From: Escherichia phage dhabil
DNA length: 64,000 bases
Sequence record: MN850621.1
Direction: 5' to 3' (one strand)
Numbering within the stretch: the stretch's first letter is position 1; every line of letters begins with the position of its first letter. A model generated the notes under the pieces. It ran no database searches and was not told where the DNA came from. It worked only from the letters and a program-made list of their open reading frames with translations. Shown one piece after another: positions 30,260-42,571 of the stretch. The position numbers and the translations under genes were made by a program.

Positions 30260-30718
30260 TTAAAGATAGATTACTTTCGTGCTGGTTTTACCTTCTAAAC
30301 GTTTAGAATTAACAAATGCCATACGACATTTTAATGAATATCCTTTATCAGGATGTTTACGATCTACGGTCATACCCAACCATAAGGTTTTATCGGTAAT
30401 CTCGAGACGCAGTGGACGATACACTTTACCTGGGACAATTTCAGATTCTATGTCAGGAAGAGGCTCCTGGATTAAAAATTCATGGATTTCTTTAACATGA
30501 TTGTGGAGCTTCTTGAACAAAGAGAAAACATATTTTTCGTCAATTTCACGTTGGATAGCACGGTCCAACAAGTGATTAGAGTACTTAATAAAGAAAGCTG
30601 GGACACCGCTCTTAATGGCGGCTTTTTTGATGGACGCGTTAAGTTCACGAAATTCGGTTTCGAACTGACGACGTAATTTGTTGCGGCGGATGAATACTTC
30701 TGAATTAATTTCTGACAT
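30260..30718 (-). CDS. regB: endoribonuclease RegB
   Basis: 152 aa; EVFIRRNKLRRQFETEFR…HLLDRAIQREIDE closely resembles T4 RegB. Confidence 0.92.
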   Translation of the reverse strand: MSEINSEVFIRRNKLRRQFETEFRELNASIKKAAIKSGVPAFFIKYSNHLLDRAIQREIDEKYVFSLFKKLHNHVKEIHEFLIQEPLPDIESEIVPGKVYRPLRLEITDKTLWLGMTVDRKHPDKGYSLKCRMAFVNSKRLEGKTSTKVIYL

Positions 30719-30780: not shown

Positions 30781-31059
30781 TTAGTATTTTTCCTCAGGTT
30801 GGAAAACGGAACGACAGGCCCACATGGATGCTTCTTTCAAGCGTTCGATTGCCGTACGAATCTGGGCGAGGCGTTCATGAGTAAGGTCGAATTCTTCATC
30901 ACTCATTTTATCAACACCGGAGCATGTAAAGGCTTCAACATATTCTTCTTCTAATGCTTTAAAGATTAAGCCCAATCGAACTTCAGCATCTTTAATGGCA
31001 TTCACTTTACCGATTTTATCGTCGGTATGTGGCTTGTAACCTTTGATGTCTTCAATCAT
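30781..31059 (-). CDS. hypothetical protein
   Basis: 92 aa ORF. Confidence 0.45.
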   Translation of the reverse strand: MIEDIKGYKPHTDDKIGKVNAIKDAEVRLGLIFKALEEEYVEAFTCSGVDKMSDEEFDLTHERLAQIRTAIERLKEASMWACRSVFQPEEKY

Positions 31060-31274: not shown

Positions 31275-31563
31275 ATTTTTTCCAGTCAGAAATCATATGA
31301 ATCTCTTGGTCATACGTCAAGAGACTGCGAGTAATAATACCCTTACACGGCCCAGAGATGAACTCGAGAGTGAAGTAAGGAACCTGTTTCATTAATCGGA
31401 TGCTTGGGGCGTGGCATCTAAAACGAGAGCCCTTAAAGGGCCCTGACATGAATACATATTCTAATGGATAGAAATAAGCATATTCGAAATTTGTAGTAAG
31501 GTCCTCTCTTCGAACCTTACGTGAGAAATAACAGAACTCAAAAAGCTCTTCATCAGTCATCAT
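31267..31563 (-). CDS. hypothetical protein
   Basis: 98 aa ORF. Confidence 0.45.
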   Translation of the reverse strand: MMTDEELFEFCYFSRKVRREDLTTNFEYAYFYPLEYVFMSGPFKGSRFRCHAPSIRLMKQVPYFTLEFISGPCKGIITRSLLTYDQEIHMISDWKKYV

Positions 31564-32087
31564 TGCATTCCTATCACAAAGAACAGTGGCAGAGGTTTAG
31601 AACCCTGGCACATAAATTTATTCATCATTACCTGGTAAGCTTCATAGAACTTATCCATCGCTGGTAGGCGAATAGGCTCTTCAATAATAATCAATAATCG
31701 GGTAACAGACAGTCCACGATACTTATGGAAGTTATCTTCGTCTAAAAATGAACGCACGGTATCATACACAACAAACCCAGGACCTTCTACTTGAAGGTGT
31801 GGTTGGGCCTTAGAAACCCTTTTTATTATATTACAGATTTCTCGTGAGCGATGCGAAGAACTTGACATAACAATCACATCATTACCCTTGGAAACCCAAT
31901 CCGCCGCGAACTGGGCGATGGCACTTGTTTTACCTGTTTGACGCCCGCCGTCAAGTCGAAGAGTACCAAACTCTTGCATTCTTGAAGTAGGTTCATACCA
32001 GGTATATTGGTCTGAGTCTAAACGTTCAATGGCGCGTTCAGCGAAGGCGTGCATTAAGGTTAGATAAATGGGGGTTAAAAATTTCAT
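31560..32087 (-). CDS. hypothetical P-loop protein
   Basis: GGRQTGKTS Walker-A-like motif; 175 aa. Confidence 0.45.
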   Translation of the reverse strand: MKFLTPIYLTLMHAFAERAIERLDSDQYTWYEPTSRMQEFGTLRLDGGRQTGKTSAIAQFAADWVSKGNDVIVMSSSSHRSREICNIIKRVSKAQPHLQVEGPGFVVYDTVRSFLDEDNFHKYRGLSVTRLLIIIEEPIRLPAMDKFYEAYQVMMNKFMCQGSKPLPLFFVIGMQ

Positions 32088-32225
32088 AGTTGTCTCTTAG
32101 TTGTGGGCCGTTCCTTGGCACATTAATTCGTCCCTTTCTGCATTTACCCATTACCGCACTTGGGCTCGACCTTATTACAGGTTGGCGGGAGTCCCTCACA
32201 GAATTGTGAGGTCCAGGTTGCTCCC

Positions 32226-32642
32226 TTATGCGTAAATCGCCTTACCATAATGTTTGTACCAGGTAGGACGTTGTGCAATTTTTTCATCCAAACGGGCTTG
32301 TGAAATAGCGATAGAAGCTTCGTGAGGAACATAATCACCACGGAATTCCTGAGGAATATCACTAATGTCCTGGACTGTAGTATCCTTGATATTAAAGCCA
32401 CGTTTTAAACATTCAGCTATAAGCTCAATTTGACGCTTACGTAAAAATTCAAGCTTATCATAAAAGAATGTAACATGGCCTGTACCAAGGATAAAAGTAG
32501 GGCTGATTTTAAAATCACGAACACGTTTACCGTTAGCAACATGCTTACGAACTGCACCGAAAACACGTGGTAATTCACGGTATTCAGCCATAAGGTGTTG
32601 GTCGGCCAATTCAGATACTAAGGTAAGGTTGATACGAGTCAT
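32226..32642 (-). CDS. denV: endonuclease V (pyrimidine-dimer DNA glycosylase) DenV
   Basis: 138 aa; [34 protein letters not shown]… is near-identical to T4 DenV as I recall it. Confidence 0.96.
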
Positions 32643-32648
32643 TTTAAT

Positions 32649-32697
32649 CTCCTGTAGTTGATAGGTCTATAGTATCATGCCTACCGGAGATGTAAAC
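32649..32697 (-). promoter_or_regulatory. early promoter cassette upstream of denV
   Basis: GTTTAC -35; TGATACTATAGACCTATCAA core; imperfect inverted repeat. Confidence 0.6.
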
Positions 32698-32702
32698 TGC
32701 TT

Positions 32703-33191
32703 TTATCTATAAGCGGCCCAAGTACCTGTTTTAAAGGTGGCGATAACACGCTTGGCACGATTCGGGGTTTGCTTGTACCAACGAGACTGCGCCAGGTTAA
32801 CTGCGGCGTCATCCCAACGTTTTTGTTGGAGCATACGCAGAGAGTTGGTAAATCCCGCTACACCAGCTTCACCCATTTGGAAGACCATATTAATCAATGC
32901 ACAACGACGAACTTCGTCCAGCACATCATAAACCGGTTTCAATTTAGGATTGCGCATTATAGCTCTACGAGCATTTTCCACTGAACGATTAAAGAGTTGT
33001 TCAGCTTCAGCCATAGTAATACGACCATTACAAACTCGACCCATAAGCTTATCAAGTTCAGCGCGAGCAACATCTTTAGATGGGTTCTTGGTAACTAACT
33101 GGCCTATACCAATAGTCCAATAACCTTCGGTGTCTTTATAAAGATTTAAATCAAGACCTTCGTCTTGACGTAACATATCAAAAATATCCAT
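32703..33191 (-). CDS. e: endolysin (T4 lysozyme)
   Basis: 162 aa; [23 protein letters not shown] and [31 protein letters not shown] match T4 lysozyme. Confidence 0.96.
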
Positions 33192-33221: not shown

Positions 33222-33671
33222 TCAAAAGAGCGAATCTAAAACCTTAAACATCGACGGGCCCATGACATATTCCCATTGCGGACGTTTAATCAAGGCGAAG
33301 GCATCAAATTCAGGAATCGTACGACCATCAGGGAACGTGTGGTAAGCTGTACATTTGCAATTCTTGAACTGCTCGTGTTCGACAGGCACAGTATATAAGA
33401 ACAGGTGTAGATTCTTATTGCTAGAATATTTGAACTCACCTAGGTCTTTCAGGAACGCAGGATCGTATGCAGTGAATCCAATCTCTTCTTCAGTTTCACG
33501 CATTGCTGCTTGAATAGGCTCTTCACCCGGTTCGACATGACCTTTAGGGATGTCCCATTTATGACGCATATTCTCTGGATTACGAGAACCTGTTACACGA
33601 CCCATAACCAATTCTTTATCGGCGGTCATAAACAAAATACCGGCGGATAGTTCTTTAACTTTTTTACTCAT
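33222..33671 (-). CDS. nudE: Nudix hydrolase
   Basis: Nudix box GHVEPGEEPIQAAMRETEEEIG; directly next to e as in T4. Confidence 0.85.
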   Translation of the reverse strand: MSKKVKELSAGILFMTADKELVMGRVTGSRNPENMRHKWDIPKGHVEPGEEPIQAAMRETEEEIGFTAYDPAFLKDLGEFKYSSNKNLHLFLYTVPVEHEQFKNCKCTAYHTFPDGRTIPEFDAFALIKRPQWEYVMGPSMFKVLDSLF

Positions 33672-42338: not shown

Positions 42339-42414
42339 TGGTCGAGACAGTAGGGATCGAACCTACGACCCAGGACTTAGAAGGTCCTTGCTCTTCCTTC
42401 TGAGCTATGCCTCG
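42339..42414 (-). tRNA. tRNA-Arg (anticodon TCT)
   Basis: Hand-folded cloverleaf: acceptor CGAGGCA/TGTCTCG, D-arm GCTC/GAGC, anticodon stem AGGAC/GTCCT with loop CTTCTAA, T-arm GTAGG-TTCGATC-CCTAC, CCA encoded. Confidence 0.8.
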
Positions 42415-42418
42415 TATT

Positions 42419-42493
42419 TGGCGGACATGCATGGATTCGAACCATGGACCAATTGATTAACAGTCAACTGCTCTACCACTGAGCTACACATCC
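42419..42493 (-). tRNA. tRNA-Asn (anticodon GTT)
   Basis: Hand-folded: D-arm GCTC-AGTGGTA-GAGC, anticodon loop CTGTTAA, T-arm CATGG-TTCGAAT-CCATG, CCA encoded; acceptor stem has two G-T pairs. Confidence 0.7.
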
Positions 42494-42497
42494 AAAT

Positions 42498-42571
42498 TGG
42501 TGGCCCTGGGTGGAATCGAACCACCATCCAGCGATTATGAGTCGCTCGCTTGACCGTCCAGCTACAGGGCC
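42498..42571 (-). tRNA. tRNA with CAT anticodon (Met, or Ile if lysidine-modified)
   Basis: Hand-folded: acceptor GGCCCTG/CAGGGCC, anticodon stem AGCGA/TCGCT with loop CTCATAA, T-arm GGTGG-TTCGATT-CCACC, CCA encoded. Confidence 0.75.

Follow-up and report, generated by a model that had tools for sequence, protein, structure and literature searches.

A structured element in the gap between denV and vs.8

We analysed a stretch of 64,000 nucleotides (nt) from Escherichia phage dhabil (sequence record MN850621.1), which is referred to here as the window. It derives from a Dhakavirus (T4-like, Straboviridae), with 99.8% identity to Escherichia phage CLB_P2 in the region considered. After the UV-repair gene denV, the minus strand has a gap of 138 nt and then a homologue of vs.8. 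The latter is a 175-amino-acid (aa) open reading frame (ORF) that was identified by its match to phrog_1488 along the entire 177-position profile (E = 9e-69); Vs.8 is a small P-loop protein. We found that the gap holds one copy of a conserved structured RNA domain of about 120 nt, which is read on the minus strand. T4 carries the element as well, about 87-88.5% identical to the window copy, and it is among the best-conserved non-coding sequences of T4-like phages.

The gap had been singled out in an earlier note as an unusually GC-rich spacer with a nested hairpin on the minus strand. Both features are indeed present: the G+C content of 0.514, compared with 0.392 for the window, is reached by just 0.4% of 138-nt windows, and the minus strand begins GGGAG-CAACCUGGA-CCUCACA-AUUC-UGUGAGG-GA-CUCCC-GCCA, i.e. 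a 7-bp hairpin within a 5-bp stem and then GCCA. We also agree with the statement that this is not a standard intrinsic terminator. There is no T tract in the gap, the sequence directly 3' of the hairpin being CUCCCGCCAACCUG, and a consensus scan called neither promoter-like nor terminator-like sites in it. Having no promoter or terminator of its own, the element is expected to be transcribed within the denV-to-vs.8 message. Among the functions suggested at the time, a structured RNA feature on the minus strand is borne out and a small RNA stays a live option, whereas a CCA-ending mini-helix does not hold up. The observation was thus real but understated. Conservation runs about 80 nt beyond GCCA, and the earlier note had captured just the 5' third of a larger, far more conserved element.

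When the minus strand was folded, the first 43 nt reached -17.3 kcal/mol (z = -2.0), and 9 of 200 shuffles folded as well. The full 138 nt folded no better than shuffles (z = -0.23). Since the fold energy of the whole gap was not decisive, we relied on comparative analysis of element copies gathered from GenBank phages, IMG/VR and metagenomes.

Architecture of the element

The element consists of three modules, whose positions in the window are given in Table 1. Module 1 is the P1 hairpin. Its sequence is lineage-specific, its end always lies 3-5 nt before the core. In type A, found in the window, T4, T6-like phages and one copy of phage PKO111, the pairing strands GGGAG/CUCCC enclose a nested 7-bp hairpin (P1a). 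In type B, found in JS10, RB69 and in Klebsiella, Yersinia, Serratia and Edwardsiella phages, AAAGG/CCUUU is arranged around CUCA-UGAAC..-UGAG. Elsewhere the P1 sequences are unrelated to these (GGGG/CCCC, GGAAC/GUUCC, UGAAUGU/ACAUUCA, UGAGUG/CACUCA, UGUGUAU/AUACACA and UGAGGG/CCCUCG).

Module 2 is the universal core, composed in order of a linker X, the hairpin P2 (ACCU-GUAAYA-AGGU), CGA, the hairpin P3 (GC-N6-GC), GGUAA-N-G and the strand Y, which pairs with X and thereby closes a three-way junction. Its near-invariant consensus reads ACCUGUAAYAAGGUCGAGC-N6-GCGGUAA-N-G-NNN. Positions C21, C25 and G34-A38 are invariant in 28 distinct cores, and the loop of P2 follows the consensus GURRNA across relatives. 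The loop of P3 is variable in sequence and differs in length by 1-2 nt. In the window UGGGU, the strand Y, lies 33 nt downstream of linker X. Linker X is GCCA after the stem in the window and in T4, and is replaced in relatives by ACCA, AGCCA, AGCA, CCCU, CCA, CUGGY, ACUA, GCGG or GCAA.

Module 3, a variable stretch followed by a tail, was found in T4-like phages only. Type A, type B and the PKO111/LC53 forms have variable regions of different length and sequence, and a covarying stem (ACAUA/UAUGU, ACAUU/AAUGU or ACAU/AUGU) closes that of type B. The 17-nt tail, G(Y)GCCA-N-GGAA-Y-GGCCC, is nearly invariant across 32 distinct T4-like elements and missing from the non-T4 forms. It ends 10-30 nt ahead of the next start codon in T4-like phages, and about 15 nt before vs.8 in the window.

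Table 1. Positions in the window of the parts of the element and of neighbouring genes
Feature	Position	Strand	Remarks
P1 5' strand, GGGAG	32221..32225	-	starts directly after denV stop codon; pairs with CUCCC
P1 internal loop, 5' side, CAACCUGGA	32212..32220	-	conserved in type-A elements
Nested hairpin P1a, CCUCACA-AUUC-UGUGAGG	32194..32211	-	7 bp; covaries within type A
P1 3' strand, CUCCC	32187..32191	-	pairs with GGGAG
Linker X, GCCA	32183..32186	-	5' strand of three-way-junction-closing helix; pairs with U(G)GGU
P2 hairpin, ACCU-GUAAUA-AGGU	32169..32182	-	sequence nearly invariant
Junction and P3: CGA, GC-CCAAGU-GC, GGUAA	32151..32168	-	P3 a tiny hairpin with variable loop
Y, UGGGU	32146..32150	-	3' strand of junction-closing helix, G bulged
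Universal core by covariance model R1	32142..32188	-	70.2 bits, E = 2.8e-20
Variable region, AAAUGCAGAAAGGGACGAAUUAAU	32122..32145	-	contains conserved (A/U/G)GGA(C/U) motif
T4-like-specific 3' tail, GUGCCAAGGAACGGCCC	32105..32121	-	possible hairpin GCC-AAGGAAC-GGC
vs.8 ribosome-binding region, ACAACUAAGAGACAACU	32088..32104	-	just before ATG 32085-32087
denV–vs.8 gap, 138 nt	32088-32225	-	read on minus strand
nudE-like gene	33222-33671	-	
e (lysozyme)	32703-33191	-	
denV (UV-repair gene)	32226-32642	-	
vs.8 homologue, 175-aa ORF	31560-32087	-	
vs.7-like and further ORFs			beyond vs.8 in minus-strand gene order
Acb2/Tad1 homologue	30781-31059	-	
regB	30260-30718	-	

The elements are mosaic, with alternative 5' modules (A or B) and alternative 3' modules (PKO111). 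Several individual copies were unusual (L numbers are our labels for loci). PKO111 has two copies (L022 1510-1556 and 2032-2078), the type-B copy preceding an internal-protein (ip) gene and the copy before vs.8 being a chimera of a type-A 5' module and a Serratia/Yersinia-like 3' module. PEi20 carries a tandem pair (L089 695-741 and 808-852), the second copy of which is divergent with compensatory changes in P2 and P3. A reduced copy between denV and vs.8 in EP32B (L095 586-679, 56 bits) is without P1 and variable region and has a mismatch in P2, AUGU in place of AGGU.

Covariation of the proposed helices

For the 28 distinct cores, 92.5% of the cells at the proposed pairs are paired, and shifting the 3' partners by 1-3 columns lowers this figure to 25-43%. 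Covariation in the core scores 0.287 versus 0.088 in shuffles, and none of 500 shuffles reached the observed value. Compensatory changes of every kind are seen in the junction-closing helix: pair 6-39 as AU (14), CG (5), UA (4), UG (2) and GC (1), pair 5-41 as CG (22), GC (3), AU (1) and UA (1), and pair 4-42 as CG (21) and GC (6).

Compensatory changes are also seen in P1 within type A. Pair 5-35 is AU in nine and GC in two elements, as exemplified by GGGAA/UUCCC in T4 versus GGGAG/CUCCC in the window. In the nested hairpin, pair 18-29 is CG (10) or UA (1), pair 20-27 UA (8), CG (1) or UG (1), and pair 21-26 GU (9) or AU (1). Between the window and T4 one G-C pair of the outer stem is changed to A-U, and in the inner hairpin one C-G pair to U-A and one A-U pair to G-U. 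For the type-B 5' module RNAalifold returned no structure; by inspection its helices are AAAGG/CCUUU, AAAGC/GCUUU and AAAGA/UCUUU, and CUCA/UGAG versus CUA/UAG. When the compact non-T4 forms (n = 5) were aligned over P1, X-Y, P2 and P3, 100% of cells were paired and six pairs had changed on both sides, which none of 500 shuffles reached.

Covariation in these alignments therefore supports P1, the nested hairpin and the junction-closing helix. For P2 and P3 a compensatory case is provided by the second PEi20 copy, with GCCU/AGGC in P2 and GUC-CGC-GAC in P3. The helices include G-U pairs (GU 7, UG 2 and GU 2), which are C-A mismatches on the opposite strand and thus indicate that the gene-sense strand, here the minus strand, is the one that folds and functions.

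Two further pairings were considered. In T4-like phages both RNAalifold and single-sequence minimum free energy (MFE) folds pair the tail with the core or with Y (GGUCG/YGGCC, GYGCG/UGYGC or UGGGU/GCCCA); the changes in these alternative pairings are one-sided and wobble-compatible, none being compensatory. In the compact forms, a loop-to-tail pseudoknot is tentatively suggested by complementarity between the P1 loop and the stretch that immediately follows Y. The partners in five non-T4 lineages are CGGAA/UUCCG, CGGUU/AGCCG, CUCCGG/CCGGAG, GCCAG/CUGGU and GAGG/CCUC. The P1 loop of each compact lineage pairs best with its own partner, the matches being individually weak (shuffle p = 0.01-0.5). 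For the window copy a pseudoknot was rejected, the best complementarity being 3 bp and no better than shuffles.

Distribution and specificity

A 151-nt query spanning the gap was compared by blastn with 50,697 phage records. Of these, 1,067 matched, 533 of them with a single match that covers at least 80% of the query. Besides T4-like phages, at least four further phage lineages carry the element. Among the rV5-like records listed, identity over the 32-47-nt core amounts to 91-94% in several and to 85% in the weakest. It is present in Vequintavirinae (FV3 and two sublineages), Stephanstirmvirinae/Phapecoctavirus (DE16, phiWec188), Schitoviridae (the N4-like Klebsiella phage Pylas), the unclassified 45-kb coliphage Ivi and uncultured contigs of 75-97 kb (L039, L064), and in all of these P1 and the flanks are unrelated to those of the window.

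A covariance model of the 47-nt core (R1) scored the phage copies at 45-73 bits. The 64-kb window contains just one match to it that exceeds noise, the second-best having 11 bits. No second copy was detected by R1 at the tRNA cluster of the window. This cluster (42339-42571, minus strand) contains three genes only (Met-CAT, Asn-GTT and Arg-TCT) and lies about 10 kb from the element.

No blastn match to the element was found in 5,426 complete E. coli genomes, and a host origin was rejected on this ground. An exact 18-mer scan of GTDB representative bacterial genomes yielded 18 loci, which we regard as chance matches: ten score at most 26 bits on R1 and are mostly partial, and the others were undetected at E <= 0.1. 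The element thus appears to be confined to virulent phages of Enterobacterales.

Rfam, proposed as a check in the earlier note, had no family to offer at the gap. With the 4,227 covariance models of Rfam 15 at gathering threshold, only three tRNAs (at 42.3-42.6 kb) were found in the whole window. A scan of 31950-32350 at E <= 10 returned only a 13-bit chance match to mir-611 on the opposite strand, and scans of six loci with non-T4 copies at E <= 1 gave no match over the element. ARAGORN predicted no tRNA at the gap. In the literature searched, including searches for sequence strings, we found no description of the element; subscription journals were thinly covered, so an earlier description is possible.

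Resemblances to other known RNAs were rejected. Mimicry of RNase P RNA (GUGCGGUAA, AAGGNACGGCCC) was dropped with R1 scores of at most 6 bits on E. coli rnpB and a best local alignment of 12 nt that 24% of shuffles equal. The 530 loop of 16S rRNA, 5S rRNA, the UGUAAU motif of the signal recognition particle Alu domain, the THI-box and twister share short strings only and gave no Rfam match. Anticodon mimicry by the P2 loop (CUGUAAU compared with tRNA-Tyr) was discarded as well; the loop has 6 nt and GUA is not kept (GUGAAA, GUAGAA, GUAAAA).

Genomic context outside T4-like phages

Most of the non-T4 copies inspected are located within tRNA gene clusters or close to them. The spacer that separates tRNA-Thr from tRNA-Gly contains the element in L068 and DE16. 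Four consecutive tRNA or tRNA-like genes precede it by about 10-20 nt in L084, and six tRNAs by about 700 nt in Pylas. For the FV3-like and L034-like phages, tRNA-Arg is found 500-600 nt downstream of it. The strand of the element is the tRNA strand in all of these tRNA-neighbouring copies. The element of FV3, L034 and Ivi has a good sigma-70 promoter after it instead of an ORF. A terminal stem, GUUGUG../..CACAAC, surrounds the copies of L068, DE16 and Pylas. No vs.8 homologue was found near the non-T4 copies, and a link to the Vs.8 protein was rejected on this ground.

Additional sequences accompany some of these copies. In Ivi (L021 ~2060-2230) the element directly precedes the sigma-70-like promoter TTGACA-N17-GATACT, beyond which come a pyrimidine-rich RNA of about 65 nt (CACCUCCUGUUCCAUCCCUCUGCUCUCC) and a strong intrinsic terminator; the locus has a weak Rfam match to the "toxic small RNA" family (24.5 bits, E = 0.48). 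The motif TAGAGGGCTTGA(T/A)AGTGC occurs just upstream of the element in rV5-like phages (L034 ~60-80; L020 ~1930-1960) and is repeated just downstream in the L034 sublineage (~190-215); conceivable roles are those of phage promoter, processing signal and cassette repeat. In Phapecoctavirus and Pylas the element is followed by a second conserved module, a long hairpin AAGAGCACUGU...ACAGUGUUCUU (L092 470-560; L093 505-600; L094 1575-1680), which in Pylas encloses a tRNA-like T-arm. Phage phiWec179 has kept the long-hairpin module in the spacer between tRNA-Thr and tRNA-Gly, the element being missing. About 3 kb away from the element, one rV5-like contig contains a group I intron (RF00028, 81.4 bits; L034 3115-3418).

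Genomic context in T4-like phages

In T4-like phages the element is not tied to denV. Two internal-protein-like genes separate it from denV in WG01 and one in JS10, and in both it is still located directly upstream of vs.8. In Marfa, L012, L063 and one of the two PKO111 copies it precedes an ip gene. The same hairpin follows ip genes and not denV in WG01, T6-like phages and Klebsiella phages. The window has no ip genes either between e and denV (32643-32702) or between denV and the element, whereas JS10 and WG01 have two between e and denV in addition to the one or two between denV and the element. All ip genes of JS10 and WG01 begin with MKTYQEF, a capsid-targeting-like N-terminus.

Comparison of the window with T4 showed a sharp mosaic boundary. 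Nucleotide identity is 92.6% in denV (97.8% at the aa level) and 88.5% in the element, and drops to 59.4% in vs.8 (38.5% aa) and 57.5% in vs.7. These identities suggest recombination at or near the 3' end of the element.

About 1 kb downstream of the element and on the same strand the window encodes a homologue of Vs.4 (92 aa) that belongs to the PF24729 hairpin-domain family (59.6 bits), which is named for Acb2 (anti-CBASS) and Tad1 proteins.

A candidate autonomous RNA module

From these comparisons we infer, with a likelihood that we would place slightly under even, that the element is an autonomous structured RNA module of a new family which acts by binding a partner. The core is kept while P1, flanks, neighbouring genes and even the phage family change, and it occurs in tRNA settings with no downstream gene; an autonomous module is the simplest way to account for this. 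The invariant junction nucleotides (CGA, GGUAA and the bulged G) would form the binding surface. As partner one may think of a protein, another RNA or a small molecule that infections of Enterobacterales have in common. The near-invariance of the RNA in unrelated virulent phages that share their hosts suggests that such a partner is itself conserved. In rV5-like, phAPEC8-like, N4-like and other phages the module would probably be released along with the tRNAs beside it, in the form of a small stable RNA. The T4-like phages have it within a polycistronic mRNA, immediately before vs.8 or an ip gene, where it might either be excised or act in place.

T4 is the reference phage of molecular biology, and to our knowledge its non-coding RNAs are generally taken as catalogued: tRNAs, rnaC, rnaD, introns and translational operators. 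Our analysis points to one further T4 non-coding RNA, better conserved than the adjacent vs.8 and common to rV5-, phAPEC8- and N4-like phages. The nearest analogues in kind are rnaC and rnaD, the species 1 and 2 RNAs of T4, which are structured and about 120-140 nt long (PMC9697503). They are encoded in the tRNA gene cluster and reportedly co-processed with the tRNAs. The homologues of the element in rV5-, phAPEC8- and N4-like phages likewise occupy a tRNA-cluster context. However, there is no similarity in sequence or structure, and R1 finds nothing in the T4 rnaC/rnaD locus (L085). The T4-like element moreover lies inside an mRNA, about 10 kb from the tRNA cluster, and is only a candidate for a stable RNA.

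Several observations weigh against an autonomous module. The T4-like element always lies 10-30 nt before a start codon with its conserved tail near the ribosome-binding site, an arrangement that a role in cis would explain no less well. Thermodynamically, the single sequence favours another fold (-35.2 kcal/mol) over the proposed junction (-22.5 kcal/mol). P2 and P3 are almost invariant, and support for them therefore comes mainly from one divergent copy, the second of PEi20. The pseudoknot is individually weak in the compact forms and not evident in the window. In the literature searched we found no transcript-end data for the locus that would speak for accumulation of a discrete RNA. Finally, denV and the element may be a block recently exchanged between Dhakavirus and T4; with denV at 92.6% identity, the comparison between window and T4 would then overstate selection on the element.

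Alternative functions

A cis-acting leader, in which an aptamer- or operator-like junction domain controls translation or stability of the next cistron (vs.8 or ip), is possible but on balance rather unlikely. The closed junction (GCCA/UGGGU together with the tail hairpin) would switch with a state in which the core or UGGGU pairs to the tail GYGCCA..GGCCC. The start codon of vs.8, or of an ip gene in Marfa, PKO111, L012 and L063, lies 10-30 nt beyond the element in all T4-like phages examined, and the nearly invariant tail adjoins the ribosome-binding site. Pairing of the tail with the core or Y in the predicted folds would make a riboswitch-like role in cis plausible in the window phage. The compact three-way junction with near-invariant unpaired strands, closed by a freely covarying helix, has the look of a riboswitch aptamer, and vs.8 homologues (1,007 records) share their host range with the T4-like elements. 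Yet the non-T4 copies consist of a core that lacks the tail and in many cases a downstream ORF, and lie among tRNA genes or before a promoter. The alternative pairings show no compensatory changes, and the Shine-Dalgarno sequence of vs.8 is not within any predicted pairing. Furthermore, the downstream genes form no consistent class, a P-loop protein and internal head proteins sharing no function, and no Rfam riboswitch was matched.

A more specific form of partner binding, which we regard as unlikely, is that of a phage counter-defence RNA, i.e. a standalone aptamer or decoy that neutralises a component of host immunity. It would be made in quantity alongside phage tRNAs or from the operon encoding the Acb2/Tad1 sponge protein, and may for instance sequester a signalling nucleotide or occupy an RNA- or tRNA-targeting defence nuclease. 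The context is circumstantial: the element was found in virulent Enterobacterales phages only, in unrelated families sharing just the core and in the neighbourhood of tRNA genes, and in T4-like phages it lies in a region with injected internal proteins and with the Acb2/Tad1 homologue. By association, this neighbourhood hints at host takeover or counter-defence.

That the element acts in RNA processing or as a self-cleaving ribozyme, with a cut at a defined site of the polycistronic or tRNA-cluster transcript, is a little more doubtful still, any catalysis being putative. Its location between cistrons and between tRNAs is that of processing signals, and several nucleotides are invariant. Some ribozymes resembling that of hepatitis delta virus (HDV) have been reported beside phage tRNA genes. 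They have a short P3 with a longer L3, a P1.1, a catalytic C in J4/2 and a dispensable P4. The strand order of the compact forms (P1, loop-to-tail, nested hairpin, junction) resembles the nested double pseudoknot of these ribozymes, a resemblance and not a test, with the pseudoknot itself tentative and not evident in T4-like copies. In contrast, no covariance model of a ribozyme or of any other Rfam family matched, even at E <= 10. Helix dimensions differ as well, the nested hairpin of the element having 5-7 bp and a 4-nt loop, and so does the pattern of conservation: the most conserved part of the element would correspond to the dispensable P4.

A role at the DNA level, in which the element is a homology block that bounds swappable ip cassettes and promotes modular shuffling, seems very unlikely to us. 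PeSL (promoter-early stem-loop) cassettes of T4-type phages were reportedly described by Arbiol in 2010. Such shuffling has been proposed for PeSL, which consist of a simple stem-loop and a sigma-70-like early promoter (TTTACW-N17-TAYWAT for T4/PST; Comeau 2014, PMC4122927). Like these, the element is a conserved intergenic block between variable ORFs, just upstream of a Shine-Dalgarno sequence and start codon, and it lies in the hyperplastic e-ip-denV-vs region. Genes beside it are inserted, deleted and replaced, as seen from the one, two and no ip genes that separate it from denV in JS10, WG01 and the window. Copies flank one ip gene on both sides in PKO111 and form the tandem pair in PEi20, the modules are mosaic, and identity falls sharply at the 3' end. 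However, the promoter that defines PeSL (PMC4122927) is missing. None was called in the gap, and in type-B elements, which contain GTTTAC..., inspection revealed no acceptable -10 hexamer at 16-18 nt. Nor does homology explain the compensatory changes, the G-U pairs on one strand and the invariant unpaired junction nucleotides of a multi-helix RNA, or the conservation of the core alone in unrelated phage families. Shuffling is better seen as a side effect of conservation.

The earlier note had thought of an RNA stability element and a CCA-ending mini-helix. For a stabiliser of the denV 3' end, a terminator-like hairpin or a tRNA-like CCA mini-helix there is hardly any room left. A stable GC-rich nested hairpin does lie 1 nt after the denV stop codon, with GCCA after the stem in the window and T4. 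But there is no U tract and no tRNA-like signal, the hairpin follows ip genes in place of denV in several phages, and GCCA is internal and base-paired within the larger element and not conserved as CCA, by which the mini-helix is refuted. The element is neither a terminator nor a tRNA-like CCA helix, and neither is it coding sequence.

Annotation of the vs.8 start

The last alternative, that the element encodes protein in frame MRDSRQPVIRSS..., is barely conceivable. It would have to be an N-terminal extension of Vs.8, which the T4 record AF158101 annotates at 64253..64912 with 219 aa and a start ATG inside the nested hairpin, or a small ORF such as the 34-aa hypothetical one of the CLB_P2 record, which spans the denV 3' end and the element (L001 2703-2807). 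In other records the element is unannotated or lies under small hypothetical ORFs. The window has a 53-aa ORF with a GTG start (32038-32199) in the frame corresponding to the T4 annotation, but vs.8 is read in another frame and cannot start inside the element in this phage, its own frame being stopped by a TAA 12 nt ahead of the ATG. The core carries 1- and 2-nt indels in RB69, L032, L033, L076 and PEi20, and the lengths of the element (116, 120, 121 and 130 nt) do not differ in steps of three. The 177-position PHROG profile of Vs.8 fits the 175-aa ORF end to end, and tblastn aligns T4 Vs.8 from residue 3 of the short form only. The T4 annotation of vs.8 is thus almost certainly over-extended and the CLB_P2 ORF probably spurious. 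Most likely, the real T4 start is at MRTFLTG (L004 2293), giving a protein of about 179 aa. The vs.8 start in T4-family annotations can be corrected in this way, and the covariance model can be used as the seed for a new RNA family.

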